DNA of 64,000 nucleotides. Source: Escherichia phage LF82-41. A model generated the notes under the pieces. It searched no databases and was not told where the DNA came from. It worked only from the letters and a program-made list of their open reading frames with translations. Positions 16,445 through 51,922 of the stretch are shown here, piece after piece. Position numbers and translations under genes: made by a program. The stretch lies in sequence record PV660463. One strand, written 5' to 3'. Position 1 is the first letter of the stretch; the number at the start of each line of letters is the position of its first letter.

Positions 16445-16490
16445 TAGGTCTATTATATCATAATATTTAGAGACCTATCTTAAAGCACGA
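16445..16490 (-). promoter_or_regulatory. early-promoter-like element with palindromic spacer (PeSL-like)
   Basis: minus strand: CTTTAA - 17 nt (palindrome ataggtct..agacctat) - TATGAT; upstream of gene 55. Confidence 0.4.
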
Positions 16491-16494
16491 GATA

Positions 16495-16764
16495 CTATCG
16501 GAGCAAACAATACGCCTGGAATACTTTTTCCATTAAACGTTTGAACTCATGTATATCGATATAAAGCTCAGTAAGACCGACATTATAAAGAAAATCTAAA
16601 AAGTTCTCATGTGTTTCGTTATAGACGCCTTCGTTTAATTGAGATACATGAGTTTCCCAAAAACCGACACCTTTAACAAATGGAAAATACGTAACTTTCA
16701 TAAAGTTGTCGACGTAAAATTCGCCCAGCTTTTCTTCAGTTATACTGATTCGAGTTAATTTCAT
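16495..16764 (-). CDS. hypothetical protein (89 aa)
   Basis: ORF, co-oriented, tightly packed. Confidence 0.5.
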   Translation of the reverse strand: MKLTRISITEEKLGEFYVDNFMKVTYFPFVKGVGFWETHVSQLNEGVYNETHENFLDFLYNVGLTELYIDIHEFKRLMEKVFQAYCLLR

Positions 16765-16988
16765 TCTAGTTCCTTTGCTGCAAATAAGGCAGCATCCAAT
16801 GAATCAAATTGGTCAACGAAATCAATATTCAACGCATCGTCAACCGTAGCATATAACCACCATTGTTTGAATTCGTATTCTAGAATAAATCCAGGACCTT
16901 CAATCTGAGGAAGACCTAGACTATTTGTACCAACTTCGTAACCAGCTAGACGCAGGTCATTAATCAAAGTTTCTGTTAATACGCTCAT
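16761..16988 (-). CDS. hypothetical protein (75 aa)
   Basis: ORF with ATGA overlaps to neighbours. Confidence 0.5.
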   Translation of the reverse strand: MSVLTETLINDLRLAGYEVGTNSLGLPQIEGPGFILEYEFKQWWLYATVDDALNIDFVDQFDSLDAALFAAKELE

Positions 16989-17317
16989 TTTACCGCCTTA
17001 ACAATTTTAAGGTCAACGAATTTTTTCTTACGTTGATTTTTCATACGACGGATAGTCTTTTCAGAGATTTCATGTTTCTGATAAGCTTTAGATTCAACAC
17101 CAAATGCAGCAACGTCAAATTCAGAAAGAATATATTGTACTAGAATTTCACGAATAGAATTACGTCCAATTTTCTGGTCGTGTTTTTGCATGATTTCATA
17201 AAGACGGAATTCCCACGCGTCAAGAACTTGAGGAGTAACAATACCACCTTTTTCTAGAAGACTAACAACTTTATCGAAAGCGAAAGAGTTCACTACGTTT
17301 TTGATTTTAGTAGACAT
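16985..17317 (-). CDS. hypothetical protein (start at internal Met with GAGGA RBS)
   Basis: ORF 16985..17356; Met at 17317 preceded by GAGGAAAAT; promoter element just upstream. Confidence 0.5.
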   Translation of the reverse strand: MSTKIKNVVNSFAFDKVVSLLEKGGIVTPQVLDAWEFRLYEIMQKHDQKIGRNSIREILVQYILSEFDVAAFGVESKAYQKHEISEKTIRRMKNQRKKKFVDLKIVKAVK

Positions 17318-17340
17318 ATTATTTTCCTCTGTTATTTTAT

Positions 17341-17385
17341 TATCCAACGAGAGCATTATACTCTGCTCTCAAGAGTTTGTGCGTT
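17341..17385 (-). promoter_or_regulatory. early-promoter/stem-loop cassette (PeSL-like); near-identical copy at 47227..47272
   Basis: minus strand: -35 region, 17-nt spacer, perfect TATAAT embedded in palindrome GAGAGCA..TGCTCTC. Confidence 0.55.
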
Positions 17386-17623
17386 ATTTCGTGATAAGAT
17401 AATGTAAATAGTTTGCTTGACGAACACTGATATCAACACCCATATCAAAGATACCTTTATAGAACGGGTATTTGTTTTCAGTAGAATCTAGACTAAAAGC
17501 CTTTCCGCCACAACTAACGGTAATAGCATCAGTTAAAGTGTCATATACAAACTTAATAGTTGAGCCGTTCACTACAACTTCAAGACGTTTTTTCGATGTA
17601 ATAATGTCTAATTCTTGTTCCAT
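17384..17623 (-). CDS. hypothetical protein (79 aa)
   Basis: ORF. Confidence 0.5.
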   Translation of the reverse strand: MEQELDIITSKKRLEVVVNGSTIKFVYDTLTDAITVSCGGKAFSLDSTENKYPFYKGIFDMGVDISVRQANYLHYLITK

Positions 17624-17637
17624 GATATTCTCCTCAA

Positions 17638-17680
17638 ATTGGTAGGAAGAAGTGTTATCTTCCTACCATCATAAACTATT
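17638..17680 (-). repeat. stem-loop element (ggtaggaag..cttcctacc) in intergenic gap
   Basis: 9-bp inverted repeat between ORFs 17384..17623 and 17679..17891; possible promoter/terminator. Confidence 0.35.
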
Positions 17681-17891
17681 AACCGAACTTTTTAGCGCCT
17701 TTCCAGCCTTCGTACATAACTGCACAAGTCAATAGTACAGCATGTTGGCATTCTTTGTATTTGTAAATCCAGAACCAGCGTAAGAAGTCTTCATCCTCAA
17801 CGCCGTTGAGTTTCATATTGGCAAAGAATTCGGCACGTTCTTCACGAAGTTGCCATGACACAATATTTTCAGGATTCATTTTGTGTTCCAC
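17679..17891 (-). CDS. hypothetical protein (70 aa)
   Basis: ORF. Confidence 0.5.
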   Translation of the reverse strand: MEHKMNPENIVSWQLREERAEFFANMKLNGVEDEDFLRWFWIYKYKECQHAVLLTCAVMYEGWKGAKKFG

Positions 17892-18010
17892 GCCCCATTT
17901 TCATCGATGAACTTAATCCAGTCATTTACAGACCATTTAGTTGTATCACCCTTTGGATTAACATTTAAAGTATATAATCCCTGCTTAAAAAGCATTCGTT
18001 TGATATTCAT
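17876..18010 (-). CDS. hypothetical small protein (44 aa; from internal Met with GAGGA RBS)
   Basis: ORF 17876..18103 overlaps next gene; internal Met at 18010 has good RBS. Confidence 0.4.
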   Translation of the reverse strand: MNIKRMLFKQGLYTLNVNPKGDTTKWSVNDWIKFIDENGAWNTK

Positions 18011-18017
18011 AATTTCC

Positions 18018-18341
18018 TCAACTGTAACGATAACATTCGTTAGCTTTACGTTTGGCTTCAGTATGAGAAGTATTATAATCATACTCTTCTTTACTGTAAA
18101 CATCTTTTTTCAACTTACGAACTTCTTTGCGGAGTTGTCGATTCATTTCATTCTTGACTTCAGAATCAACTCCTTTCATACGTTTCCATTTATCTGAGCG
18201 GAAAATGTTTTCAACCATGTCTTTGTGGCTAACACCGTCAGGAGCTTTACGCTTACCAAAATAGTCATAATCGCGAACTTTCAAATCTTTACGACGATAT
18301 GTTTTACCCATAAGTACCTCAGAGGTTGATTGATACGACAC
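18018..18341 (-). CDS. hypothetical basic protein (107 aa)
   Basis: ORF; Lys/Arg-rich. Confidence 0.5.
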   Translation of the reverse strand: MSYQSTSEVLMGKTYRRKDLKVRDYDYFGKRKAPDGVSHKDMVENIFRSDKWKRMKGVDSEVKNEMNRQLRKEVRKLKKDVYSKEEYDYNTSHTEAKRKANECYRYS

Positions 18342-18567
18342 GTTTGATAAAATTCACTTCACTTACTGAAAGGTCTTTAAGACCGATTGATTCTAAACGC
18401 TGAGTAAGCGTCAACATCGGGATATAATCCCAATGAGTTTTATTTGCTTGATAAGTACGGACGCCATTAGCAATTTCAACATGTAAATCGGAAATGATAA
18501 TGAATACCAGTCGCTCGTCATTAACTTTAAGGGTTAGAACAACTTTCTTTGAGTCTAAACTAATCAT
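18319..18567 (-). CDS. hypothetical protein (82 aa)
   Basis: ORF. Confidence 0.5.
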   Translation of the reverse strand: MISLDSKKVVLTLKVNDERLVFIIISDLHVEIANGVRTYQANKTHWDYIPMLTLTQRLESIGLKDLSVSEVNFIKRVVSINL

Positions 18568-18746
18568 GGTTTAATTTCCTTTGCAATTGAACAGAAGATA
18601 CCACGGTCACAAAGCATTTCACCAATTTCCGGATATTTGATTGAACGGTACCAAACATCCAGGCTTGAAACTCTGGTTATCTGTACTGCATTACCGTTGA
18701 CAGAATAGTACTGGTCAACCTTAATTTCTTTATCTTCAATTGTCAT
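18564..18746 (-). CDS. hypothetical protein (about 60 aa from internal Met)
   Basis: ORF 18564..18866; Met MTIEDKEIK preceded by GAGGAAAAT. Confidence 0.45.
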   Translation of the reverse strand: MTIEDKEIKVDQYYSVNGNAVQITRVSSLDVWYRSIKYPEIGEMLCDRGIFCSIAKEIKP

Positions 18747-18757
18747 TTTATTTTCCT

Positions 18758-18805
18758 CTATAGTAGATGGTTTAATCTTAACACAACTATTGAGGATGTA
18801 AACTG
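18758..18805 (-). promoter_or_regulatory. early-promoter-like element (GTTTAC -35, 17-nt spacer)
   Basis: minus strand cagTTTACAtcctcaatagttgtgtTAAGAT; same family as other cassettes. Confidence 0.45.
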
Positions 18806-18911
18806 TTTTATGAAAATATTTTTGGTTTGAGAGGGGCACAAGGAGATAGTGAAGTGAAGATTCCAATAGATTATATTGGAAATGGGATAAAGAAGACCAG
18901 GCGGCACCTGG

Positions 18912-19245
18912 TCAATCTTCTATGATATCAGAGTCATATCCTAATGAAATCAAGGACTTTTTAAACTCTGCAATATTCTTTTGTTTCTTATCATTTAAAA
19001 ATATGACAGGATAACGAATATTAAGTGAAGTGAATCCTGCACGTTTAGCAAGAGATACGATTAAAGGACGGTCATATTCAATCTTACCATTATTAGTGAG
19101 GACTTTATAAAATGTATAAGGAGCATTGAGCTCCTTTAAAAGTTTTGTAACAGTATAACATCCTGGACAACGTCCAACTTCTTCAGGGATGCCATAAATT
19201 TCAATCTTGTTCTTTAAGTTCGAGTTTTGTTCCACGAGAAATAAT
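18912..19245 (-). CDS. nrdH: glutaredoxin-like NrdH redoxin (start codon uncertain, possibly non-ATG)
   Basis: KIEIYGIPEEVGRCPGCY redox motif; N-terminal part of ORF 18912..19364 overlaps another gene so true start lies near 19245. Confidence 0.6.
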
Positions 19246-19518
19246 TCCTTGGTAAGCCCAATAAGGAGGATTAACAGAATCCTCACCAGAGTTTTCTTCA
19301 GGAAAATAAACCTGGATAACGAAGCCGGATTCATCAAAGGTAAAATAAACCGTAGGCAGTTCACCTAACAAATCGGCACGAGCGTTGATTTCTTCGAGGT
19401 CTTGTTCACGTCCAGCCCAGAAGCTTGGGTTCAGACTACATTCATAGAAATAATAGTCATTACCGAACATATCAAAACCATTCCAACTCTCTACTACATA
19501 CCGCTCAAAACTAATCAT
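19201..19518 (-). CDS. hypothetical protein (105 aa)
   Basis: ORF. Confidence 0.5.
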   Translation of the reverse strand: MISFERYVVESWNGFDMFGNDYYFYECSLNPSFWAGREQDLEEINARADLLGELPTVYFTFDESGFVIQVYFPEENSGEDSVNPPYWAYQGIISRGTKLELKEQD

Positions 19519-19520
19519 AA

Positions 19521-19736
19521 TTAAGCCTTTTTATCAAGAACAGAATTCAGTTTATTAGTAATTTTGTCCAAACGTTCATTGAATTCGCTGGAGGATAAAC
19601 CCTTTTCTGGAGAAATTAAACTAATCACGAAAAATACACCAGTAAAAGGAATAAGAAAAATAGCTCCAACTGCCATAAACAAAAAGAACGTTACAGTTGT
19701 AAGAAAATCAGCTAAACCTTTACGAAATTTGTACAT
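19521..19736 (-). CDS. small membrane protein (71 aa)
   Basis: ORF with long hydrophobic segment FLFMAVGAIFLIPFTGVFFVISLI. Confidence 0.5.
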   Translation of the reverse strand: MYKFRKGLADFLTTVTFFLFMAVGAIFLIPFTGVFFVISLISPEKGLSSSEFNERLDKITNKLNSVLDKKA

Positions 19737-19846
19737 ATTTACCCTTAATTAACTAAGTATTGATAATCATTAAACTATATTGCGAATAAAATTCTGGACC
19801 AAAACGAAAAATCATATCATTTATAGTATCCATAATGTAATTCAAT

Positions 19847-20317
19847 TTAATCATGTTTCCACACCCCATCGGTATTTGACCAAAGCCGCTGATTATCTGA
19901 TCCTCGCCACAGCTTTTTAGTCGGAAGATTTTTCTCATACTTCCCATCAATAATAACATCAACATATTTAAGCATTTCTAGTTGTTTAATATCTTCAAAC
20001 TTATATCCTGTCCACAACCAAATGCTTTTATTGGGATAAAGATTTTTTACTGTTTGAGCAATGCAATGAATAACAACTCGGTTATCAGGATAGAGAGGGT
20101 CACCTCCGGTTATAGTTAATCCTTCTATATAATCATTATTCAAATATTCAATTAATTGTTCTAGTGTTTCACCAGTGAATGGAATACCATTTCTAGCATT
20201 CCATGTTGATTTATTATAACACCCTTCGCATTTATGCAAACAACCCGTAACGAAAAGAACGACCCTGCATCCCGGGCCATTCACAAAATCGCAAGGATAA
20301 AATCTATCATAATTCAT
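19847..20317 (-). CDS. nrdG: anaerobic ribonucleotide reductase activating protein (radical SAM)
   Basis: 156 aa; CxxxCxxC-type cluster (FVTGCLHKCEGCYN); directly downstream of nrdD. Confidence 0.9.
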   Translation of the reverse strand: MNYDRFYPCDFVNGPGCRVVLFVTGCLHKCEGCYNKSTWNARNGIPFTGETLEQLIEYLNNDYIEGLTITGGDPLYPDNRVVIHCIAQTVKNLYPNKSIWLWTGYKFEDIKQLEMLKYVDVIIDGKYEKNLPTKKLWRGSDNQRLWSNTDGVWKHD

Positions 20318-22601: not shown

Positions 22602-22631
22602 AATAAACCCTTACCTTAAATAGATAAGGGT

Positions 22632-22639
22632 ATTTATAA
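22632..22639 (-). promoter_or_regulatory. late promoter candidate (TATAAATA on minus strand) upstream of gene 49
   Basis: exact T4 late-promoter octamer about 30 nt upstream of gene 49 start. Confidence 0.5.
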
Positions 22640-22640
22640 T

Positions 22641-22820: not shown

Positions 22821-22829
22821 AATAAACCT

Positions 22830-23243: not shown

Positions 23244-23244
23244 A

Positions 23245-23442: not shown

Positions 23443-23543
23443 TTAATTCATTTATTGAAGGTTCATCATAACATGGTTCTTCGTCGTTGTAAACCGTTTC
23501 GACGTCTGGCTCGACAGTCTCCCATCGAGCAGAATACCACAGT

Positions 23544-26136: not shown

Positions 26137-26162
26137 AATATTTTCCTCTCGTTAAGATAGAT

Positions 26163-26195
26163 TCATTATACTCCAACCATCCTTGGTTGTAAACT
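26163..26195 (-). promoter_or_regulatory. early promoter cassette (TTTACA-17-TATAAT) with palindromic spacer; core repeated at 27182..27214
   Basis: minus strand cagTTTACAaccaaggatggttggagTATAATgaa; 27-nt core identical to next copy. Confidence 0.6.
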
Positions 26196-26198
26196 GAT

Positions 26199-27158
26199 TT
26201 ATGATTTTAATGCATTCATTGCGTTAAAAAGTTTAGAGTACTGCAACTGGAGATTCGTTACAACACTTTGAGCATCACGAAGCTTAGCTTGTGCTTTGTC
26301 AAGTTCAACGGACAGTTGGTCTACAGTAGCCTTGATTTGATTGTAATGGTAATCTTCGACCGGAAGAAGGTCATTAGAAACATTTAGTTTTACTGCAGAC
26401 AGTTTGCACACATTTGGCAAACCTTTAAACATTGATTTTCCCGAAGTAGAATATGAACCTAGAACTTCAGCATTACCAATCGGGGTTGCAGTAATTGACG
26501 CTTCAAATGTTGCATTTTCCTTTTTAAGATTTTGATAGTATTCAGAGTCTTTGTGCCACCACGGCGCAGGAACCTTTTTACCAATAGATACACGAGCCTG
26601 GATAGCGATATGGCCCTTATTCTTGATAGGGTAGATAATATTAAGCTCACGAGAATAAATTGCTTTAATCTGGTGGATATTATCACCTAAAACTTCCAAC
26701 GCTTGGTGGAATACACGAGCAACGTTATCATTCTTAGGTTTATACGTAAGAGTGAACTCGTTCTCACTGATAACCATGATTTCTAACTTATCGTAAGTAT
26801 ATTTCAAATGTTTCATGTTAATTGCTTGAGGACGAATACGAGAAGCAATGGCCATCAGATTGTTAAGGTTATTCCGGAACTGCTTAGCGAAATATTGACC
26901 TTCACCGCCAATACAAAAATTACGAAGTTTCTGTTTGGCCAATAAACGGCTGAACTCACCATTTTTAATGAACTCTTTAACGGGTGTGTTAGTAACGCAT
27001 TCAAATTGGGTAAACATACGAGAAGTAATCCCATAATATGAACAGATTTCCTCAATCTCTTCAGGAGTCTTTACAGGCATACGGATAGGATTAGGTCCTG
27101 GAGTGTATGCGTTCGAGGTAAATTCTTTGATAAGTTCTCTACGTGTAATAAAAGCCAT
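26199..27158 (-). CDS. hypothetical protein with C-terminal coiled coil (319 aa)
   Basis: ORF; same size and architecture as neighbours. Confidence 0.7.
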   Translation of the reverse strand: MAFITRRELIKEFTSNAYTPGPNPIRMPVKTPEEIEEICSYYGITSRMFTQFECVTNTPVKEFIKNGEFSRLLAKQKLRNFCIGGEGQYFAKQFRNNLNNLMAIASRIRPQAINMKHLKYTYDKLEIMVISENEFTLTYKPKNDNVARVFHQALEVLGDNIHQIKAIYSRELNIIYPIKNKGHIAIQARVSIGKKVPAPWWHKDSEYYQNLKKENATFEASITATPIGNAEVLGSYSTSGKSMFKGLPNVCKLSAVKLNVSNDLLPVEDYHYNQIKATVDQLSVELDKAQAKLRDAQSVVTNLQLQYSKLFNAMNALKS

Positions 27159-27181
27159 TTTATATTCCTCATGTTGAAAAA

Positions 27182-27214
27182 TTTATTATACTCCAACCAT
27201 CCTTGGTTGTACAT
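27182..27214 (-). promoter_or_regulatory. early promoter cassette (TGTACA-17-TATAAT), repeat of 26163..26195
   Basis: attatactccaaccatccttggttgta core identical. Confidence 0.6.
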
Positions 27215-28799: not shown

Positions 28800-28810
28800 G
28801 TTTTACCTCC

Positions 28811-28858
28811 AGTAGTTGATAGGTCTATAATAACATAACCATAGACCTTGTAAACAAC
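28811..28858 (-). promoter_or_regulatory. early-promoter/stem-loop cassette (PeSL-like)
   Basis: GTTTACA -35 on minus strand; palindrome aggtctat..atagacct. Confidence 0.5.
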
Positions 28859-30285: not shown

Positions 30286-30288
30286 TTC

Positions 30289-30333
30289 GTTTCGATAGGT
30301 CTATAGTATCATATCCTAAAAGCATGTACACTA
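30289..30333 (-). promoter_or_regulatory. early-promoter/stem-loop cassette (PeSL-like)
   Basis: ttcgataggtctatagtatca...tgtacac; minus-strand TGTACA -35. Confidence 0.5.
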
Positions 30334-30362
30334 CTTTTTAAAAATATTTTAACCCCCTAAAG

Positions 30363-30378
30363 GGACCCGAAGGTCCCC
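30363..30378 (-). terminator. stable UUCG-tetraloop hairpin at 3' end of gene 30383..30649
   Basis: gggacCCGAAGgtccc; related hairpins at 8295 and 48150. Confidence 0.45.
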
Positions 30379-32686: not shown

Positions 32687-32990
32687 ATTATTCACCAATT
32701 AAAGTTTCAACAAAATTCACCAAATCGTTCTGACGAGCATCAACTTGCTTTTCATAGAAGTCTCCGCTATCATTTACTGCGTGATAAGCTACATCATTTA
32801 AATCAGTATCGGCTTCACGTAAGTCACGGATAAGGTCCATCAATTTATTAGCTTGTTCACGGGTCATTTTACCATACTCGTTTCAATAAGATTCACTATG
32901 CCGTTTACCATGTTATAAGTAAACATCGGATAATTGTATTGTACTACAACATAAGCGATAAGCAAAAGTTTCATTTTGTTCTCCGTTTGT

Positions 32991-33035
32991 TTTGGTAGGA
33001 CTACTATAACATAGTCCTACCAAGATGTAAACTAC
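32991..33035 (-). promoter_or_regulatory. early-promoter/stem-loop cassette (PeSL-like)
   Basis: ggtaggactactataacatagtcctacc palindrome; minus-strand GTTTAC -35. Confidence 0.5.
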
Positions 33036-33238: not shown

Positions 33239-33435
33239 AATATCCTCACATAATCTCGTTAACATACATTTGCAATTCGGTGTGAGCGTCGGCCATCTTT
33301 TTCATAGCTCTGTTAATGTCGATGTCTCCATCTTCGCACCCGTGAGCATTTTCCCAATCAGATACCGCATTAGCATACTCTTCAATCAAAAACATCAACT
33401 TAGAAATCTTTTCTTTACGTGTCATAGCGTTCTCC

Positions 33436-33483
33436 TATAGTAAGTAAGGACTACTATAACACAACCTGAGGAGAAGTAAACTG
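33436..33483 (-). promoter_or_regulatory. early-promoter cassette (GTTTAC-17-TATAGT)
   Basis: minus strand cagTTTACTtctcctcaggttgtgtTATAGT. Confidence 0.5.
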
Positions 33484-33492: not shown

Positions 33493-33520
33493 AAAAAGCC
33501 CCAACCATAAGGAAGGGGCT
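33493..33520 (-). terminator. intrinsic terminator (hairpin + U-run on minus strand) after rI
   Basis: agccccaaccataaggaaggggct preceded on plus strand by A-run; near-identical to 48842..48871. Confidence 0.6.
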
Positions 33521-33526
33521 AGTAAA

Positions 33527-34855: not shown

Positions 34856-35079
34856 TTAGGTTCACCTTCTTTAACGAAATCTGGGTAAGGGTAAAATCCT
34901 GAGTAAAACCCTTCACCTTTATGATTGCTACAACCTTTGTTCGAACAGTAACACCAATAATCAAAATCACAAGCCATTTCGTCATTGCATAAAGCAAAAA
35001 CTACAGGCCATTCGCATTTTTCGCATTTAGCACCTGTAAGAATTTTTGTTTGACTCATAGCCATGTCACCTTTAAGCAA
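34852..35079 (-). CDS. Cys-rich small protein (75 aa)
   Basis: ORF with 9 Cys (CEKCEW...CNDEMACDFDYWCYCSNKGCSNH). Confidence 0.5.
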   Translation of the reverse strand: MLKGDMAMSQTKILTGAKCEKCEWPVVFALCNDEMACDFDYWCYCSNKGCSNHKGEGFYSGFYPYPDFVKEGEPK

Positions 35080-35282
35080 TATTCTTCTACATGTTGTTTA
35101 CGGCCTTTCTTATCAATAAAGGTATATTCAACGAATGTTCCGATGTAGTCTTTATCTACATCATGTGGACTATTAATTGGACATTTAGTACGACAAATGC
35201 GTTCCCATTGACGAATAATTACTGCCTTATTCTTTGGATCATATGGATGTGGATAATGTATATTCATAATAACGGTTCCCAA
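35055..35282 (-). CDS. hypothetical protein (75 aa)
   Basis: ORF. Confidence 0.5.
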   Translation of the reverse strand: MGTVIMNIHYPHPYDPKNKAVIIRQWERICRTKCPINSPHDVDKDYIGTFVEYTFIDKKGRKQHVEEYCLKVTWL

Positions 35283-35761
35283 TCAACAATCACAATTTCT
35301 AGTTTAGTGGAATACGTATCTAAAATCTCTTCGATGACATCCCAGTTTCCACCACCAATACCTGCACCAATTCTTGGCATATAAATTACAGGCTTTGTTA
35401 TCTTATTCTTTCCAAATTCATTTAATTCTATTATACAATTCATTAAAGCAGAGTACTCAAAATTAGGTCCCGGCTCAAACTGCGTATAAAGATTAAAGCA
35501 ATAAGCTTTATGGGTCTTAAAATATTTTTCATAAACCGAATAAGTCCCGAGTTTAGACTCGTCTCCGAATTCGGTTTGAAGTTTATCGGCTTCCAGAATT
35601 TTTGGATAAGCCTTTGCTAATTGTCCTGCCACACCGGCGCCCATTGTATGAAAACAATTACACCCATGAGCAATATTATTACCTTTAGAAAACAGGGCGA
35701 CAATATCGCCCTTGATATAGTTTTTAATCACTTGCTGCAAGTCCTCTAGTATAAGAGTCAA
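35264..35761 (-). CDS. macro-domain protein (ADP-ribose binding/processing)
   Basis: 165 aa; NNIAHGCNCFHTMGAGVAGQLAKAYP and RIGAGIGGGNW resemble macro-domain glycine-rich loops. Confidence 0.65.
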   Translation of the reverse strand: MTLILEDLQQVIKNYIKGDIVALFSKGNNIAHGCNCFHTMGAGVAGQLAKAYPKILEADKLQTEFGDESKLGTYSVYEKYFKTHKAYCFNLYTQFEPGPNFEYSALMNCIIELNEFGKNKITKPVIYMPRIGAGIGGGNWDVIEEILDTYSTKLEIVIVDWEPLL

Positions 35762-37077: not shown

Positions 37078-37085
37078 TTTGATTT

Positions 37086-37137
37086 CTCCTCTAGTTGACA
37101 AGTCTATAGTAACACAACTAGAGGAGAAGTAAACTAC
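37086..37137 (-). promoter_or_regulatory. early-promoter/stem-loop cassette with 12-bp inverted repeat
   Basis: ctcctctagttg...caactagaggag; minus-strand GTTTAC-17-TACTAT; upstream of regB. Confidence 0.55.
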
Positions 37138-37433
37138 TCTTTGAAAGGAATTAACTTTTTAACTGCTTTAGATACTTCGTCACGAACCTGATGGAAGTTC
37201 TTGAGCTGTTCAAGGCGTTGTTCGTAATACGCAATCTCATCTTCTTCAAGACAATCGTCAGCGTCTTCTTTCAGATATGCCTTGTACTCATTAAAGAGGG
37301 CCCATAGGCGGTTCTCAAAGTCATCAAGGCTTTGAATTTTCTTGTGCTTCGGAACAAGGCCAAAAGGATTGCTTTCAGTTATGCGTCTAGATGCTTCATA
37401 ATGAGTTCCAAAGCCTGATAGGATTTGAGCCAT
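37134..37433 (-). CDS. hypothetical protein (99 aa)
   Basis: ORF. Confidence 0.55.
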
Positions 37434-40050: not shown

Positions 40051-40054
40051 AATT

Positions 40055-40109
40055 TCCTCCAAGTAGTTGATGAATGTATAGTATCAAATCCCTTGGAGGA
40101 AGTAAACAC
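40055..40109 (-). promoter_or_regulatory. early-promoter/stem-loop cassette (PeSL-like) upstream of denV
   Basis: tcctccaag...cttggagga inverted repeat; minus-strand GTTTAC -35. Confidence 0.5.
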
Positions 40110-43075: not shown

Positions 43076-43091
43076 AATATTCTCCTCATGT

Positions 43092-43134
43092 TTTAATAGG
43101 ACTACTATAACATAGTCCTATCAGTTTGTACACT
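43092..43134 (-). promoter_or_regulatory. early-promoter/stem-loop cassette (PeSL-like)
   Basis: gataggactactataacatagtcctatc palindrome. Confidence 0.5.
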
Positions 43135-43352
43135 TATTTTGACATTTCTTCGATGTCACGACGATACCCATCACGAACTTCACGAAGAGCTTCAAGGCCA
43201 CACATAGGCTCGATACCAGTAATGTGAACTTGATTAATCTGATACTCTACATCTTCTAACTGAGCGAAAACATAACGACGTTCTGCTGCACAACCAGGTT
43301 TAGCTTTACCGAAACGTTTATTCAAAGTAGTCATTTTTATATCTCCATTCAC
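43134..43352 (-). CDS. hypothetical protein (72 aa)
   Basis: ORF. Confidence 0.5.
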   Translation of the reverse strand: MNGDIKMTTLNKRFGKAKPGCAAERRYVFAQLEDVEYQINQVHITGIEPMCGLEALREVRDGYRRDIEEMSK

Positions 43353-43359
43353 TCATTTG

Positions 43360-43403
43360 TTTTGATAGGTCTATAGTATCAACAACTACAGACCTTGTAA
43401 ACT
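43360..43403 (-). promoter_or_regulatory. early-promoter/stem-loop cassette (PeSL-like)
   Basis: ttgataggtctatagtatcaacaactacagaccttgtaaactg. Confidence 0.5.
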
Positions 43404-44651: not shown

Positions 44652-44654
44652 TTG

Positions 44655-44699
44655 TTTTGATAGGACTACTATAACATAGCCCTATCTTGTTGTAAACTG
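44655..44699 (-). promoter_or_regulatory. early-promoter/stem-loop cassette (PeSL-like)
   Basis: ttgataggactactataacatagccctatc...tgtaaactg. Confidence 0.5.
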
Positions 44700-45181: not shown

Positions 45182-45190
45182 AATGATTCC

Positions 45191-45496: not shown

Positions 45497-45594
45497 TTTC
45501 TACATTCCTTAATAAAGTTTTCGATTGTTTCATTTTCACGTCTAGCTAGGAGTTCATTATAACTAATCATTTGAGAAGCGTAAACAGCATAAAT

Positions 45595-46017
45595 TCAGTT
45601 CAGGCTTTTGCATCTTATTTCCTTAACGAATTCCATAGCTTCTTCATATTCATACTTTTTAACAGCTTCATCATACTGAGCTTGGGCTTTTGCGCACTGA
45701 ACTTTCCATTCTCTTAATCTGGCTCTGTGATGACGGCCTTGGTGCCAATATCCCACCCAATTAATAGGCATTAATAAAAACGGTACAATAAGTGGTGCGA
45801 CGAACATTAATGAAAATGCTGCATCAGACGATATAACTTCACTAGAATCTAAAACAGCTCCTATAATCATAAAGATTAAAAATGCTAAAGCTAAAATAGG
45901 GCCAAATAGTACTTCATTTGGGATTAATTTACGCTTGTATTCATACGCCCAGGGCTTACTTGGCATGTATAGGGTTGGCTTTGACATATTCTCTACATTC
46001 CATAATAAATTGCTCAA
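45595..46017 (-). CDS. membrane protein (start uncertain)
   Basis: 140 aa ORF with two hydrophobic segments; overlaps upstream ORF so true start probably internal. Confidence 0.5.
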   Translation of the reverse strand: MSNLLWNVENMSKPTLYMPSKPWAYEYKRKLIPNEVLFGPILALAFLIFMIIGAVLDSSEVISSDAAFSLMFVAPLIVPFLLMPINWVGYWHQGRHHRARLREWKVQCAKAQAQYDEAVKKYEYEEAMEFVKEIRCKSLN

Positions 46018-46558: not shown

Positions 46559-46607
46559 GTTAACTCCTTTATTATCCAAAAGGAGGACCGGAGTCCTCCG
46601 TATTATT

Positions 46608-47201: not shown

Positions 47202-47226
47202 ATTATTACCTTTCAATTGGTGGTTT

Positions 47227-47272
47227 ATTATCCAATGAGAGCATTATACTCTGCTCTCAAGAGTTTGTAAAT
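47227..47272 (-). promoter_or_regulatory. early-promoter/stem-loop cassette; near-identical copy of 17341..17385
   Basis: ccaatgagagcattatactctgctctcaagagtttgtaa; minus strand TTTACA-17-TATAAT. Confidence 0.55.
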
Positions 47273-47499
47273 TATTTTTTAATCAAATTGACATAAAACT
47301 TGGCGTCTTCGGGGTGCATGCCTTCGCAGTATTCTTCAACCATGAAATTCTTAACAGCTTCATAAGGACCACTCAGATTAAGCTCAGTTGTCCAAAACTT
47401 GGAATCTTGGACTGAATCGATACGAACTTCAGGATGACGATTGCGAATAACTTCTTCGGTGTATTCATAATCAACGACATCAATACTAACTTTAGCCAT
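47272..47499 (-). CDS. hypothetical protein (75 aa)
   Basis: ORF. Confidence 0.5.
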   Translation of the reverse strand: MAKVSIDVVDYEYTEEVIRNRHPEVRIDSVQDSKFWTTELNLSGPYEAVKNFMVEEYCEGMHPEDAKFYVNLIKK

Positions 47500-47514
47500 T
47501 TTGTTTCTCCTCTT

Positions 47515-47558
47515 GATTTGATAGGTCTATAGTAACACCTTCCTTGGTGTTTGTACAT
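47515..47558 (-). promoter_or_regulatory. early-promoter/stem-loop cassette (PeSL-like)
   Basis: ttgataggtctatagtaacacc...gtttgtacatc. Confidence 0.5.
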
Positions 47559-48061
47559 CATTTATTTTTAATTTTGCAAATTTTTCCAGCTTCGATACAT
47601 GCAGCATAGATGATGCTCTGGGCAATTTTATTGCTAGTAGACCTTGCAATCACACTAAGAACAATTTCTTTTTCTTCACCACCACAACCCCAGGACCTTT
47701 GCCCATGAGTACCTTTAACTACGGCTGAAACTTCAACAGAACGTCCGCCATCAGAAGTTTTAACATCTACAACCCAATCACCATCTTTCTCTTCAATCTG
47801 TGGTTTATCCCAATAGATATTAATAAACGATGTCTCACCAATAGAAGTCGGCGGTTTTTTCTCTACAGTAAGACCTTCGCTTTCTAACCACTCAATGACT
47901 TTTGTAGATAAAGCTAAAGAAACATGTAATGGACAACGACAGTATTTTTCACCTTTAGCTGAAGACTCGTACATCTTTTCTAAAATACGCTTTTGCACGT
48001 TTTTAAAAATAGTTTCAGCAGATTCTTCAGATTTTTTATTCAGTTCAGTATAAAGACTCAT
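47558..48061 (-). CDS. hypothetical protein (167 aa)
   Basis: ORF. Confidence 0.6.
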   Translation of the reverse strand: MSLYTELNKKSEESAETIFKNVQKRILEKMYESSAKGEKYCRCPLHVSLALSTKVIEWLESEGLTVEKKPPTSIGETSFINIYWDKPQIEEKDGDWVVDVKTSDGGRSVEVSAVVKGTHGQRSWGCGGEEKEIVLSVIARSTSNKIAQSIIYAACIEAGKICKIKNK

Positions 48062-48074
48062 AGCATTTTCCTCT

Positions 48075-48120
48075 GTAGTTGATAGGTCTATACTAACACA
48101 TCTAGGGAAGAAGTAAACAA
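48075..48120 (-). promoter_or_regulatory. early-promoter/stem-loop cassette (PeSL-like)
   Basis: gtagttgataggtctatactaacac...gaagtaaacaac. Confidence 0.5.
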
Positions 48121-48149
48121 CTTTTTCAGTAAGTTATAGACCCCCTAAA

Positions 48150-48165
48150 GGGGACCGAAGTCCCC
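48150..48165 (-). terminator. stable UUCG-tetraloop hairpin at 3' end of gene 48171..48797
   Basis: ggggacCGAAgtcccc. Confidence 0.45.
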
Positions 48166-48170
48166 ATTCT

Positions 48171-48797
48171 TTACTTACGAGTTTTTGCATACTGAGCAGC
48201 GTCAGCAGCCAAACGACCTGCCTGACGAAGTTTTTCTTTAATCGCATCGTGAAGTGGTTGAGTATACTTCAAACCTTCGATAGTCAAATAAAGACGATAA
48301 AGGTCTGGGGTATCAAGGTTGTTGATATGTTGGCCATTACGAAGACTGTTGAATTCACGAACGAGTGAAGATGTATCAGATTCAATATCACGAACAAGCG
48401 AAGATAGTTGTTTATATTTTTTTTCCAGGCTAGAAGTATCAAACTTAAGAGCAGGAGCTTTAGGAGTTGCTTTTACTTCCGGCTTAGGCTCAGGTTTTGC
48501 TATTGCTTTAGGGGTCGCAGGTTTAGGAACGGTAGGAGCAGGTTTTACTTTAGGCGAGCCCGATTTAGCAGAAACACCACCACTAACAATATCTTTGAAT
48601 GCTTTAGAAGCTCTGTAATATTCTTTTTGGCTGGAAGTGTCGATACCGTACATGGCTTGAACGTTTTTGAAAAACTCTGTACTAGTTTTTGTACCAGAAA
48701 TAGCATCGTAAGCAGCTTGCCATTTCTCTTTTGTCATACGTACACCGGCTTCGGTGATTACTTCCGTTTCGGCTAAAAATTCATTAAAAGTATACAT
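48171..48797 (-). CDS. internal-protein-like with leader MYTFNEFLAETE and Lys/Pro/Ala-rich low-complexity linker
   Basis: 208 aa; N-terminal leader resembles capsid-targeting sequence; PKVKPAPTVPKPATPKAIAKPEPKPEVKATPKAP repeat region. Confidence 0.6.
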   Translation of the reverse strand: MYTFNEFLAETEVITEAGVRMTKEKWQAAYDAISGTKTSTEFFKNVQAMYGIDTSSQKEYYRASKAFKDIVSGGVSAKSGSPKVKPAPTVPKPATPKAIAKPEPKPEVKATPKAPALKFDTSSLEKKYKQLSSLVRDIESDTSSLVREFNSLRNGQHINNLDTPDLYRLYLTIEGLKYTQPLHDAIKEKLRQAGRLAADAAQYAKTRK

Positions 48798-48841
48798 TGA
48801 TGGTCCTTAGAAAGTAGGTTTATTGTTTACTATATTTATAC

Positions 48842-48871
48842 AAAAAAAGCCCCAACCTTTCGGAAGGGGCT
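48842..48871 (-). terminator. intrinsic terminator (hairpin + U-run on minus strand), repeat of 33493..33520
   Basis: A7 run then agccccaacctttcggaaggggct on plus strand. Confidence 0.55.
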
Positions 48872-48904
48872 ATATACCTTGTCGGGGTTTCCACCTACTA
48901 GGTA

Positions 48905-49000
48905 AGTGTTTGTACGAAACGCCGGGATTCGAACCCGGTTATTAAGCAGTTGACGCTACTCAATATTTTTAAAAGGCCGTATCTCTACCATATCCGAACG
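48905..49000 (-). other. tRNA-like remnant / possible small stable RNA (canonical T-arm, no clean cloverleaf)
   Basis: minus strand ccgggTTCGAATcccgg T-arm at 48921..48939 with 3' acceptor-like strand; anticodon/D arms could not be folded by eye. Confidence 0.3.
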
Positions 49001-49173
49001 TCCCGTCAAAAACGCTACTCGGCTTACGGCAAAGATATTTCCTCGAATCGATAATTCTGTGCGCCGTTTCTGCTGTGATGTAAGGGGATATTAACAAATC
49101 ATAAAGATTTATTAAGACCAATCCTTACTCAGGGAACATCAGTCCGACGTCTTGCCGGTAGCGACCCGGCTTC

Positions 49174-49518
49174 TTATTTTGGCATATCATCAATTTGCTC
49201 TCGACGCCGACGCCATAGATTAATCGCTTCATAGGCACATTCTGCGTTTGGTATATGACGGCAATAATATAATGATTCGCGTTTCTGGAACCGATGTTGT
49301 AATGGAATTTCGTTTAAAAGGTCTTTACGGTCAAAGTATTCAAAACTAGTTAACCCAGAACGGTTTTTAATGAACTTCCAATGATCAAATTCATTTTGAG
49401 CATAGATGTAATCGGCATGCTGATACAGCGAATTAATCAATCGATGAGAAATAACTGTATCATATTCGTTAAAATAAAACGTTAAATCATGAACTACCAG
49501 ATAAATATTGCCTTTCAT
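49174..49518 (-). CDS. hypothetical protein (114 aa from internal Met)
   Basis: ORF 49174..49566 overlaps tRNA-Arg; start moved to MKGNIYLVV at 49518. Confidence 0.5.
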   Translation of the reverse strand: MKGNIYLVVHDLTFYFNEYDTVISHRLINSLYQHADYIYAQNEFDHWKFIKNRSGLTSFEYFDRKDLLNEIPLQHRFQKRESLYYCRHIPNAECAYEAINLWRRRREQIDDMPK

Positions 49519-49536
49519 ATTTTCCTCACTTGAAGT

Positions 49537-49613
<77 letters not shown>

Positions 49614-49616
49614 AAT

Positions 49617-49691
49617 TGGTGACCCTGGCTGGTTTCGATCCAGCTACCTATCAGTTATGAGCTGACAGCTCTCCCATTGAGCTACAGGGCC
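49617..49691 (-). tRNA. tRNA-Met or tRNA-Ile2 (anticodon CAT), CCA encoded
   Basis: Manual cloverleaf: acceptor ggccctg/cagggtc, D-stem gctc/gagc, anticodon loop ctCATaa, T-arm gctgg-atcgaaa-ccagc. Confidence 0.8.
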
Positions 49692-49770
49692 TTAATAACT
49701 TTCTATTATGAAAGGCACTTTAGAGCACCTTTGGTAATAGAGGGTATGAATTAATAATAACACATAATTC

Positions 49771-50286
49771 TTAAAGCAAATCAATCATTTTAACAGTTGG
49801 CAAAACAATTTCTTCTTCAATATAAGCAAATTCGACACGTTCAACTACACGCAAGAAATCGTAATCATAGTATTCAGAAGCATAGCCAAGAATATCAATA
49901 AGTCCTTGAGATATCTCATCGCCTTTCACAAAGAACAGGTCGAATACGCGGGCTTCGTCTTCTTCAGATTTATCACCAAGGTCTACTTCGATGCCAAAGA
50001 CCTTTTTAATAAATTCTGGTCGGAGTTGGTCTGAGAACAGCCCTTCAACCAGATATTCGTAGATAATAAGCGAGCAGTCACTGAATGGTGTATTACCACA
50101 GTAACGTTCAGCTTTAGTGCTGGAATGACGACTCTTAAATTTCTTCAAGAGATATTTAAACTGTTGGAGCTCATGCTCTTCCACTTCAAACAATGTTTTG
50201 GTTTTATAGTTGTCCCCGTCATTTTCATAGGTAGTGACATCAATTACATAACCCTTAGGAATTGTACTGCCTAAACAAATATTCAT
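49771..50286 (-). CDS. hypothetical acidic protein (171 aa)
   Basis: ORF. Confidence 0.6.
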   Translation of the reverse strand: MNICLGSTIPKGYVIDVTTYENDGDNYKTKTLFEVEEHELQQFKYLLKKFKSRHSSTKAERYCGNTPFSDCSLIIYEYLVEGLFSDQLRPEFIKKVFGIEVDLGDKSEEDEARVFDLFFVKGDEISQGLIDILGYASEYYDYDFLRVVERVEFAYIEEEIVLPTVKMIDLL

Positions 50287-50290
50287 TTAC

Positions 50291-50581
50291 TCACCGTACC
50301 ATATTAATGTAATTATACTCAATACATTCAAGATTTAAAGGATTCTTGAAAATATCATATTCAAGAGGACCTTTTTCTGTTTCAATAAAGAAATCAAAGT
50401 TCACACTACTAAATTTGCGGTCTTCCCAAAGTAATTTAACCTGTGAAGATGAACGGTCGACGTAAACCTTTTCAACTTCAAAGTGGGTCAAAATACCATA
50501 GTAATCGACTAGTGCTTTAGCTGCACGTTGATCGCTTTCATATCCATTCTCAACGGATTTTACCTTAGCATAAAGAATCAT
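50291..50581 (-). CDS. hypothetical protein (96 aa)
   Basis: ORF. Confidence 0.55.
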   Translation of the reverse strand: MILYAKVKSVENGYESDQRAAKALVDYYGILTHFEVEKVYVDRSSSQVKLLWEDRKFSSVNFDFFIETEKGPLEYDIFKNPLNLECIEYNYINMVR

Positions 50582-50940
50582 GAATGTTCCACCACTTCAA
50601 AGGTATGAGCATCAACAATATGATACCAGTCAAAATTTTCTTCTGCGTTTTTATAAATTTCGCGAAGAGCTTCAACAGTTTTTCCTGTAGCAACAAGGTC
50701 GTCAATACCACCAAGAGGATAACAGTCATAACCAGCAAACAGAAGGAAATTAATAGTTTCTGTAGGTTCTGGATGCAAAACACCATTATCATCTACCACT
50801 TCAAAGAAAGTGTAAGAAGGAGTACAAGTTTTAATCCAGGCCCATGCTTGAGCTGCTGAATCAAACGGATTACGGAATAAACGACAATCCGGGTCTTTAG
50901 AAGGATTTGCTTCAAAATCCGCATATACGTGATATTTCAT
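50578..50940 (-). CDS. hypothetical protein (about 120 aa)
   Basis: ORF 50578..50973; start probably MKYHVYADF. Confidence 0.55.
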   Translation of the reverse strand: MKYHVYADFEANPSKDPDCRLFRNPFDSAAQAWAWIKTCTPSYTFFEVVDDNGVLHPEPTETINFLLFAGYDCYPLGGIDDLVATGKTVEALREIYKNAEENFDWYHIVDAHTFEVVEHS

Positions 50941-50941
50941 T

Positions 50942-51127
50942 TTACTCACCTTTTGCAATTTTATCCATAACAATAGCGATTAAACCGATTAGAAATGCTA
51001 CTACCAATGAGATAGAATTTTCAGTTGTTGTCAGTAGTCCACAAATGAATCCTACAAACATCGAAAAACTAAAAGCCATTGAAGCAATTACTACAGCAAC
51101 ATTACGAATCAGTTCAGCGCGTTTCAT
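50942..51127 (-). CDS. small membrane protein (61 aa)
   Basis: ORF with two hydrophobic helices. Confidence 0.5.
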   Translation of the reverse strand: MKRAELIRNVAVVIASMAFSFSMFVGFICGLLTTTENSISLVVAFLIGLIAIVMDKIAKGE

Positions 51128-51140
51128 TTTATTCTCCTCA

Positions 51141-51187
51141 GTAGTTGATAGGGTAATAGTATCACTACCCTATCTAAAAGTAAACGG
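51141..51187 (-). promoter_or_regulatory. early-promoter/stem-loop cassette (PeSL-like)
   Basis: gatagggtaatagtatcactaccctatc palindrome; minus-strand GTTTAC -35. Confidence 0.5.
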
Positions 51188-51196
51188 TTTTATAAA

Positions 51197-51505
51197 CTAT
51201 TTTATTCCGCGTGATGCAATCGTATTCTGCCGTTTAACGCCGGTTTGTTTAAAGTCATGACTGTCGATTTGATCGGTACGAGCAACTCCGAATGATGATT
51301 TAATCTTAGCTTTAGATCCTTTAACTATAGAAATAAACATCTCGGAAGACCCTTTCTTAAAGTCTGATGCAGATACTTCAACGCCGTTCTTAGCAAGTGA
51401 CCTCAGAATTGCATCCGCGTACTCATCATCAAGACTCGCTTGAGTATTAATAACGAATGTCTTTGGTGCAGCCGCTTCATTGATAAATTCTTTGAAAGTT
51501 TTCAT
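51197..51505 (-). CDS. internal-protein-like (leader MKTFKEFINEA)
   Basis: 102 aa basic protein with capsid-targeting-type N-terminus. Confidence 0.7.
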   Translation of the reverse strand: MKTFKEFINEAAAPKTFVINTQASLDDEYADAILRSLAKNGVEVSASDFKKGSSEMFISIVKGSKAKIKSSFGVARTDQIDSHDFKQTGVKRQNTIASRGIK

Positions 51506-51521
51506 TTTATTTTCCTAATTA

Positions 51522-51567
51522 ATTTTGATAGGACTACTATACCATAATCCTATCAGCATGTAAACTA
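51522..51567 (-). promoter_or_regulatory. early-promoter/stem-loop cassette (PeSL-like)
   Basis: minus strand GTTTAC-18-TATAGT; palindrome gataggact..agtcctatc. Confidence 0.5.
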
Positions 51568-51568
51568 C

Positions 51569-51856
51569 TTACAGAAGGGTTTTTGCAATAATTTTAAGCT
51601 GAGCTACAGAAATATGCTTAGCTTTAAACAGTGCAGTCTCTTCAGCCGGAGAGATAACAATAGTAGCGCCATCTTTCTTAGCAGACCATCCATCCCCTAA
51701 GTAAACAGTACCTTTTACTTCTTCGCCGTCAACCAGACTAATCATTGGTTTACCCTCACGTCCTTTATTTGCTTTAATAACTTCGGAAGTAAGGGTCGCT
51801 TCGGTCAGAGTAGAAACGTTAGCATCAGGTGATATAAATTCTTTATAGGTTTTCAT
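51569..51856 (-). CDS. ipI: internal protein I-like (leader MKTYKEFIS)
   Basis: 95 aa, same length and position (upstream of 57B) as T4 ipI. Confidence 0.7.
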   Translation of the reverse strand: MKTYKEFISPDANVSTLTEATLTSEVIKANKGREGKPMISLVDGEEVKGTVYLGDGWSAKKDGATIVISPAEETALFKAKHISVAQLKIIAKTLL

Positions 51857-51878
51857 TTTATTTCCTTGAGGTCGTTTA

Positions 51879-51922
51879 TTTGATAGGATGATAGTAACAC
51901 GCCATCATCCTTATGTAAACTG
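51879..51922 (-). promoter_or_regulatory. early-promoter/stem-loop cassette (PeSL-like)
   Basis: aggatgatag...catcatcct palindrome; minus-strand GTTTAC -35. Confidence 0.5.

Follow-up and report, generated by a model that had tools for sequence, protein, structure and literature searches.

Promoter-early stem-loop cassettes (PeSLs) were defined in phages RB49 and phi1 as composite elements consisting of an A/T-rich region, a sigma70-like early promoter, a stem-loop, and a Shine-Dalgarno sequence (SD) with an ATG (Arbiol 2010, PMC2839356). The stem-loop is most often located between the -35 and -10 hexamers or overlaps the -10, and the RB49 elements showed both promoter and terminator activity in reporter assays, with mini-circles also detected (PMC2839356). 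PeSLs were extended to T4 and PST, with the promoter consensus TTTACW-N17-TAYWAT and stems of the AGNA...TCNT kind, and to nt-1 and KVP40 (Comeau 2014, PMC4122927). In RB69, 57 early promoters were predicted, many of them upstream of novel open reading frames (ORFs) (Nolan 2006, PMC1524935). Here we report the analysis of a family of promoter/stem-loop cassettes in a 64,000-nt stretch of DNA from Escherichia phage LF82-41 (sequence record PV660463), referred to in its full length as the window. This is an RB69-like (Mosigvirus) genome segment running from gp43 to gp5. A literature search found no paper linking PeSLs with RB69 or Mosigvirus.

Judged by their sequence, the window cassettes appear to be genuine copies of the already described PeSLs, here in an RB69-like phage. 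We estimate at about 80% the probability that they are PeSL-type regulatory cassettes of an RB69-like T4-type phage, each combining an early promoter, a hairpin insulator against read-through and a recombination substrate. The match to PeSLs proposed in an earlier sequence-only reading of the window is supported, as all defining features that can be sought in sequence were found: position, A/T stretch, promoter, stem, SD/ATG, variable region and insertion/deletion (indel) junctions.

Like the RB49 and phi1 PeSLs (PMC2839356), the window cassettes are composites of an A/T-rich region, an early promoter, a stem-loop and SD/ATG, carry the stem mostly between the -35 and -10 or over the -10, and are sites where recombination between flanking cassettes appears to delete or insert ORFs, leaving one chimeric cassette. 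The RB49 promoters are near-perfect TTGACA/TATAAT and the stems rich in G-runs and C-runs, whereas the window has a GTTTAC -35, A/T-rich stems, and CCTATC conserved at the start site. Terminator activity and mini-circles are experimental findings for RB49 only (PMC2839356), the window cassettes being known from their sequence. The T4/PST elements (PMC4122927) have the same promoter consensus as the window cassettes, and the window stem motif (AGGA/TCCT) is of the published kind; in both cases SD and ATG stand at the 3' end, and the cassettes lie in variable early regions adjoining indels or gene swaps. The host genome differs, the window cassettes residing in a Mosigvirus. Moreover, the PST stems are "just upstream of the promoter" according to the 2014 legend, whereas most stems in the window, and in our own scan of T4, lie inside the promoter, around the -10. 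The early promoters predicted in RB69 (PMC1524935) belong to the same phage group and show the same GTTTAC/-10 consensus, with C preferred at -3 to -1 (the CCTATC box). That study dealt with promoters only and neither mentioned hairpins or stem-loops nor connected the sites to indel junctions. The SD-pairing variant, the G·T bias and the terminator exclusion described below were seen here, and no mention of them was found in the available portions of Arbiol 2010 and Comeau 2014.

Between 16.4 and 51.9 kb of the window, 18 solid intergenic cassettes were identified ahead of minus-strand genes, together with one doubtful, two atypical and two intragenic consensus copies. The common layout is an A/T-rich stretch, GTTTAC(A/T), a spacer of 16-17 nt, often TGn, then TA(T/C)(A/T)(A/G)T and a leader of ~20 nt with SD and ATG. 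The A+T content of the 25 nt upstream of the -35 is 74%, compared to 63% window-wide. A motif scan (GTTTAC-N17/18-TAnnnT with ≤3 mismatches) returned 34 matches on the minus strand and 10 on the plus strand, compared to 11.3 ± 3.3 (maximum 21) in 100 dinucleotide shuffles, which is a strand-specific enrichment of ~3-fold. The strict pattern GTTTACW-N15-19-TAKWMT matched four times (0.48 expected). Nineteen minus-strand matches lay outside a crude gene map and were first classed as intergenic. These copies are named below by the position of the G of the -35: 51920, 51565, 51185, 48118, 47558, 47272, 45585, 44697, 43402, 43133, 40107, 37134, 33481, 33032, 30331, 28855, 27214, 26194 and 18803. 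The distance from this G to the mapped ATG is 46-71 nt, mostly 56-58 nt; the exceptions are 45585 and 33032, the latter having the usual spacing to a short ORF missed by the gene map. Such a stereotyped distance indicates that the unit is a cassette of fixed length, running from the -35 through the start codon. In an unsupervised repeat search over 15-53 kb the cassette emerged as the largest direct-repeat family (10 copies of 48 nt), with four further overlapping families. A scan with a generic sigma70 consensus found 69 and 65 sites versus 69.3 and 60.8 in shuffles, i.e., no enrichment in this A/T-rich genome; the enrichment signal is carried by the specific T4-type motif only.

These counts bear out the sequence-only reading, which had put the number of copies at about 20. 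Its description of the module (GTTTAC(A/T), a 17-nt spacer and a -10, in gaps ahead of minus-strand genes) holds for the motif and its placement; the spacer is 17 nt only when the -35 hexamer is read as TTTAC(A/T), and is 16 nt in five copies. The 28-mer quoted there as an example has no exact occurrence, but is present with one or two mismatches at 43095, 44659, 32994 and 51527 (0 expected). Both proposed sub-families are real: the cores of 26194 and 27214 (listed there as 26163/27182) are identical over 28 nt, and 33481, 37134 and 18803 (33436/37086/18758) have GTTTAC..TC..CTC..AGTTGTGTTA in common. The view of 25-52 kb as hyperplastic accessory DNA also agrees with the distribution of the copies, 17 of 19 of which lie within 26-52 kb, a region with many indels against relatives that are 93-98% identical. 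Intergenic copies are absent from 1-15 kb (replication genes) and 53-64 kb (late genes).

Homology breakpoints were defined by blastn of the window against Mizar, SF, FL18 and RB69, and clustered over 15-53 kb (n = 60). This comparison with indel boundaries confirmed that breakpoints concentrate on the cassettes: 15 of the 60 fall within cassette spans, which make up 4.3% of the region (binomial p = 3e-8). A breakpoint was found at 12 of the 17 cassette-bearing gene starts versus 20 of 63 other gene starts (Fisher p = 0.005), and at 12 of 17 cassette-bearing gaps versus 7 of 23 other gaps of at least 25 nt (p = 0.014). The breaks at 37138 and 30324 fall at the -35 itself. From these alignments, the cassettes appear to coincide exactly with the sites of gain or loss of small genes among close relatives.

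Two junctions were compared base by base. RB69 and SF are devoid of the 66-amino-acid gene at 43134-43334 and carry a single cassette at this site, in which the A/T-rich part and the -35 are as in 43402, while the spacer, hairpin, -10 and SD are as in 43133. FL18 is devoid of the gene at 26199-27158, and its single cassette is 27214 in its upstream part and 26194 in its downstream part, with the switch inside the identical 28-nt core. Neither chimeric junction contains extra or missing bases, and clean chimeras within shared sequence are a signature of homologous exchange. The role of recombination hot spot assigned to the cassettes in the sequence-only reading is directly supported by the breakpoint enrichment and the two chimeric cassettes, although only about a quarter of the breakpoints are at cassettes.

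The remaining 45 of the 60 breakpoints lie away from cassettes, and promoters may mark the edges of exchanged segments without being the cause of the exchange. This leads to the most serious alternative, according to which the cassettes are ordinary early promoters that serve as landmarks and not as substrates, indels arise by illegitimate recombination or through homing endonucleases, and the survivors are those that keep a working promoter. Breakpoints at repeated terminators and at a homing-endonuclease insertion beside the tRNA genes fit this account. However, it does not predict the two clean chimeras, whose junctions lie inside sequence common to the flanking cassettes, or the excess of breakpoints over other gaps of at least 25 nt, and mini-circles from such exchanges were found in RB49 (PMC2839356). 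We therefore regard it as unlikely.

The segment from the -35 to the ATG of each copy was folded and compared with shuffles. The mean fold z-score was -2.7 for the 19 copies and -0.2 for 15 intragenic motif matches (Mann-Whitney p = 5e-4). The inverted repeat claimed for the module was recovered in most copies, 14 of 19 having z < -2, the other five being without a significant stem. Three arrangements were distinguished. In type A (51920, 51565, 51185, 47272, 44697, 43402, 43133, 33032 and 28855), the 5' arm is the 3' half of the spacer and the 3' arm runs from immediately behind the -10 to about +3, so that the -10 lies in or beside the loop. Type B stems link the downstream SD to the 5' half of the spacer (37134, 14 bp; 40107, 10 bp; 18803; 33481). 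Small spacer-internal stems are present in 26194, 27214 and 47558, and folding of the same segment gave no significant stem in 48118, 30331 and 45585. Pairing is kept although the stem letters differ between copies (GGACTA/TAGTCC, GGTCT/AGACC, GGGTA/TACCC, GGATGAT/ATCATCC, GGAAG/CTTCC, GAGAGCA/TGCTCTC), and a further stem, GGGCTCAT/ATGAGCCC, occupies the same position in relatives. Our scan of T4 revealed the same arrangements: ipI, trna.4 and e.7 are preceded by a type A stem, denV by a type B stem and ipII by a long stem.

A conserved box, (A/T)(G/A)(T/A)CCTATCAA, follows the -10 at about -6 to +5 in all cassettes, including copies without a pairing partner; its CCTATC is present even in 48118, 47558 and 30331, which have no 5' partner. 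The box may be a start-site or initial-transcript signal of T-even/RB69-type early promoters, and the 5' arm of the stem appears to evolve to match it.

The individual elements are listed below, with fold z-scores (z) and homology breakpoints where available.

51857-51920, minus strand: cassette preceding gene 51569-51856; type A hairpin AGGATGAT/ATCATCCT enclosing TACTAT; z = -3.6; breakpoints 51834/51888.
51506-51565, minus strand: cassette; type A hairpin GATAGGAtTA/TAgTCCTATC with one U.G wobble, enclosing TATAGT; z = -4.1; breakpoint 51512-51523.
51128-51185, minus strand: cassette; type A hairpin GATAGGGTA/TACCCTATC, covarying with other copies; z = -3.3; breakpoints 51137/51187.
48062-48118, minus strand: cassette without embedded hairpin; canonical terminator GGGGAC-ttcg-GTCCCC plus T-run (~48150-48165) just upstream; z = +0.6; breakpoint 48067-48073.
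47500-47558, minus strand: cassette with variant -35 ATGTAC; small spacer-internal hairpin ACACC/GGTGT; z = -1.4; breakpoints 47522-47579.
47202-47272, minus strand: cassette with ATTTAC; type A hairpin TGAGAGCA/TGCTCTCA around TATAAT; z = -4.1.
45556-45585, minus strand: doubtful copy, a perfect GTTTAC-N18-TATAAT in an e.3-like gene remnant; no hairpin; z = +0.1.
44652-44697, minus strand: cassette; type A hairpin GATAGGgCTA/TAGtCCTATC with a G.U wobble; z = -3.8.
43335-43402, minus strand: cassette at the upstream edge of the inserted gene cassette; type A hairpin AGGTCTgTAG/CTAtAGACCT; z = -3.7.
43134-43334, minus strand: 66-amino-acid gene between two cassettes; absent from RB69, SF and FL18, with one chimeric cassette at the site.
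43076-43133, minus strand: cassette with GTGTAC at the downstream edge of the inserted gene cassette; type A hairpin ATAGGACTA/TAGTCCTAT; z = -4.6.
40051-40107, minus strand: cassette; type B hairpin (10 bp) pairing spacer TTCCTCCAAG with SD-containing CTTGGAGGAA; z = -3.0; breakpoint 40042.
37078-37134, minus strand: cassette; type B hairpin (14 bp) TTCTCCTCTAGTTG/CAACTAGAGGAGAA with the SD in the 3' arm; z = -5.2; breakpoint 37138 in three relatives.
33426-33481, minus strand: cassette; weak type B hairpin TTCTCCT/AGGAGAA; z = -2.3; canonical terminator 33493-33521 just upstream; FL18 insertion at 33493-33520.
32975-33032, minus strand: cassette before a small ORF; type A hairpin (12 bp) TTGGTAGGACTA/TAGTCCTACCAA, in which GGTAGG/CCTACC is a compensatory variant of GATAGG/CCTATC; z = -6.2.
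30286-30331, minus strand: cassette with GTGTAC and no embedded hairpin; canonical terminator ~30351-30377 just upstream; z = +1.4; breakpoint 30311-30324.
28800-28855, minus strand: cassette; type A hairpin AGGTCTAT/ATAGACCT; z = -2.3.
27159-27214, minus strand: cassette with ATGTAC; spacer mini-hairpin AACCAA/TTGGTT; 28-nt core in common with 26194.
26137-26194, minus strand: cassette with the core of 27214; small spacer-internal stem; gene between the two copies absent from FL18, with the crossover in the core.
18747-18803, minus strand: cassette; type B hairpin CCTCaATAGT/ACTATaGAGG, including the SD; z = -2.7.
17624-17690, minus strand: atypical copy with degenerate promoter hexamers; hairpin GGTAGGAAG/CTTCCTACC; breakpoint 17686.
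16423-16480, minus strand: atypical copy upstream of gene 55; hairpin ATAGGTCT/AGACCTAT enclosing TATAAT; no GTTTAC -35; TGCTTTA box upstream.
18072-18101, minus strand: intragenic perfect consensus GTTTAC-N18-TATAAT in a 55.5-like ORF; hairpin enclosing the -10; z = -3.0.
25214: intragenic consensus copy, a motif match within an ORF.

A putative counterpart of the atypical copy at 17624-17690 is a Mizar cassette with a full promoter and a related, covarying stem (CGATAGGAAGA/TCTTCCTATCG). The doubtful copy 45585 was dropped as an intergenic cassette, since in relatives the site lies inside the e.3-like gene, which is truncated in the window. About 250 bp present inside this gene in Mizar, SF, FL18 and RB69 have been lost at 45556-45640, leaving a 16-codon stub, and the end of the deletion is exactly at the GTTTAC-N18-TATAAT that is intragenic in these phages. 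Furthermore, a 78-nt segment containing the hairpin, leader and gene start of cassette 47272 (47211-47288) is repeated with 81% identity at 17323-17400, upstream of gene 16985-17356; this copy has no recognisable -35.

The stems were examined in a broader set of cassettes obtained by a promoter-anchored scan of viral contigs, made with no structural condition, which yielded 120 loci; all loci pooled comprised 299 unique cassettes in 185 families. Stem counts and controls were computed in Python on the ungapped set, unselected for structure, and our own pair counts were used because stem registers vary between copies. An ungapped inverted repeat scoring at least 8 was found in 36% of the 185 families versus 2.8% of shuffles that kept the hexamers. 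The dominant register, whose axis falls on the first bases of the -10, was present in 30 of the 155 families with a spacer of 18 nt, compared to 0-6 for any other register. In the dominant register there were 877 Watson-Crick cells, compared to 782 ± 17 in column shuffles (maximum 831) and 562-771 with slid partners, and several pair types occurred per column. The stems thus covary across cassette families. Among close orthologues, the frequency of variation at paired positions is about half that at unpaired ones, and strict double compensatory changes number only three; the covariation signal stems mainly from between-family comparisons.

Isolated internal stem mismatches were counted with a detector blind to mismatch type. 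On the sense strand, G·T or T·G occurred 36 times and A·C or C·A nine times (shuffled null fraction 0.48, p = 1.5e-5). Among close orthologues, changes from Watson-Crick pairs to G·T were likewise more numerous (20) than those to A·C (10). As the reverse complement of G·T is A·C, this asymmetry indicates that pairing is selected on the sense strand in single-stranded form, which is most simply RNA.

The embedded hairpins were also compared with canonical terminators (GC-rich, U-tailed) located within 80 nt upstream. An embedded hairpin was found in 65 of 162 promoters without such a terminator, but in only 2 of 21 with one (Fisher p = 0.007). The window follows this exclusion: 48118 and 30331, which have a terminator upstream, carry no stem, and 33481 has a weak SD-pairing stem only. 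This near-exclusion suggests that the embedded stem shares part of the terminator's job. Genuine terminators, separate from the embedded stems, are found at ~30351-30377, 33493-33521, 35694-35712, 46582-46599 and 48150-48165. Canonical GC-rich terminators also occur as repeats (33493-33521/48844-48872 and 30335-30389/48123-48177), and repeated terminators coincide with homology breakpoints at 33493-33520 and 48844; these repeats may also act as exchange points. A terminator role on the opposite strand (the reverse complement of the stem followed by TTGTTGTAAAC) was considered and dropped, as the wobble bias favours the sense strand and the terminator scan flagged no stem.

We propose that each cassette would be a strong early promoter for host sigma70, with the A/T-rich stretch as its UP region, joined to a short leader with an SD and a start codon, so that each small early gene would bring its own expression signals. 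The inverted repeat would be placed in those parts of the promoter that have no other sequence constraint. The cassette's own transcript is predicted to start ~7 nt after the -10, inside or past the 3' arm, and would then be unable to form the hairpin. By this geometry, the hairpin could form only in read-through RNA arriving from upstream, and early transcripts do run on into downstream genes (PMC2988021). In read-through RNA it would act as an insulator between cassettes. Type A hairpins would attenuate the upstream transcripts or give them a protected 3' end. Type B hairpins would in addition hide the SD, which is the GGAG target of RegB, so that translation of the gene would occur only on transcripts from its own promoter; RNA structure inhibits RegB (PMC3014915). 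Finally, as repeats of 50-60 nt in one orientation, the cassettes would allow homologous exchange to delete, insert or swap the genes that they flank.

The narrower proposal, that the embedded hairpins form a distinct class of U-tract-less RNA insulators working only in read-through transcripts, is put forward tentatively, and we consider it rather less probable than its opposite. It would mean that the mRNA started within the cassette lacks the 5' arm and only RNA derived from upstream folds, and that type A folding ends or protects the upstream RNA and type B folding keeps the next gene from being translated and cut by RegB. If so, an early gene would be a self-contained unit whose expression depends on its own promoter alone, and this would explain free shuffling.

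A parallel is provided by the promoter-choice control of T4 genes e, soc, 49 and I-TevI, in which a hairpin hides the ribosome-binding site in long transcripts. In these classical cases, late or middle promoters switch translation on late. The type B arrangement is similar in that the promoter lies within the hairpin and the SD forms the 3' arm, so that only internally started transcripts would have a free SD. It differs in having an early promoter in the internal position and in recurring in the window as a modular cassette.

Several points weigh against the PeSL reading and its RNA-level component, in addition to the breakpoints away from cassettes. Five of the 19 copies have no significant hairpin. 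The 185 families are related to each other, hence the counts are not fully independent. G·T is also the least destabilising mismatch in single-stranded DNA, so that the non-template DNA strand may also play a role. The embedded stems are A/T-rich and have no U-tract, unlike canonical terminators, in which a GC-rich stem is followed by a U-run. The 8 nt after type A stems contain only 0-3 T, the tails being A-rich, and the terminator scan flagged no embedded stem, although it flagged genuine GC-rich terminators of the same region. Canonical intrinsic termination is therefore unlikely, and the effect at the RNA level may be attenuation, 3'-end protection, processing or an effect on translation. 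Lastly, we infer promoter activity from the consensus and from homology to T4 early promoters, and the RNA-level role of the stems and the recombination mechanism are inferred as well.

A different explanation of the stems is that they are double-stranded DNA signals, either a palindromic operator bound by a dimeric regulator of the phage or a cruciform, driven by supercoiling, with its centre at the -10, that tune or shut off the early promoters. The constant position of the symmetry axis (first bases of the -10, 30 of 155 families) and the recurring outer half-sites GATAGG/CCTATC would suit such a signal, and reviews describe the mechanism of early-promoter shut-off as incompletely understood and not requiring AsiA. 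A sequence-specific protein is, however, hard to reconcile with stem letters that vary widely while pairing is kept, and the 36:9 asymmetry of G·T over A·C is unexpected for a duplex palindrome or a two-armed cruciform. In addition, type B stems extend to the SD, far outside the promoter, the depletion of stems below upstream terminators points to upstream transcripts, and CCTATC is also found in copies that have no 5' partner. We consider this explanation distinctly improbable.

Another suggestion is that the palindromes are plain intrinsic terminators lying by chance near promoter-like hexamers. Their intergenic position and near-exclusion with canonical terminators are compatible with it, and one RB49 stem-loop reduced lacZ expression about as strongly as rrnB T1 (PMC2839356). 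The scarcity of T after the stems, their A-rich tails and the silence of the scan argue against it, and the -35/-10 consensus, spacing and ATG distance are conserved far beyond chance, so this option is very improbable. The same applies to the view that the inverted repeats are functionless and kept perfect by template-switch ("quasi-palindrome correction") mutation in replication, a process established in T4 and consistent with the few strict double compensatory changes in close orthologues, since it accounts for neither one fixed stem register in unrelated cassettes, nor the sense-strand G·T bias, the stem depletion next to terminators or the SD pairing.

If the PeSL reading is correct, it would extend the PeSL picture to the RB69 group, with nucleotide-level cases of gene gain and loss through exchange of promoter cassettes. 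It would help to explain how T4-type phages swap small accessory genes, among them those for internal proteins and anti-defence genes, with the neighbouring genes undisturbed. The sense-strand wobble bias, the fixed register at the -10 and the near-exclusion with terminators make the function of the stem-loop directly testable.

The relatives of the window belong to Straboviridae, Tevenvirinae, Mosigvirus according to the taxonomy of their records. The segments at 25-33 kb and 33-52.5 kb show 95-97% identity to RB69-like coliphages, including FP43, Mizar, ATK47, CEV1, SF and O157 typing phages. By reference to the Mizar and RB69 annotation, the early-gene stretch at 15-53 kb comprises 47/a-gt/55/nrdH-G-D/49/pin/nrdC.x/mobD/rI/tk/vs/regB/denV/e/nudE/e.x/tRNA/ipI/57B/57A/1, with genes on the minus strand almost throughout.

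An Rfam search at gathering thresholds identified two tRNAs only in the whole window, and no known RNA family covers the cassettes. A non-coding gap of 376 nt (48790-49180, minus strand), beside tRNA-Arg and tRNA-Met (49537-49691), matches the T4 small stable RNAs rnaC and rnaD at 91% identity across 277 nt; no Rfam family scored above threshold in this gap. Amid the tRNA genes, a homing-endonuclease-like ORF and an additional tRNA-Asn are found in Mizar (35068-35733, corresponding to window positions 49540-49616) but not in the window. This indel is unrelated to the promoter cassettes.

Upstream of the gene starting at 16422 there is a site resembling a MotA box, with a TATAAT ~23 nt downstream, too distant for a middle-promoter arrangement. 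Middle-promoter-like sites were found upstream of the genes starting at 11650 and 28209, with a MotA-box-like CGCTTTA or TGCTTTA followed ~12 nt later by TATAAT. At 11650, the -10 is also surrounded by a small stem (TGTGGT/ACCACA).

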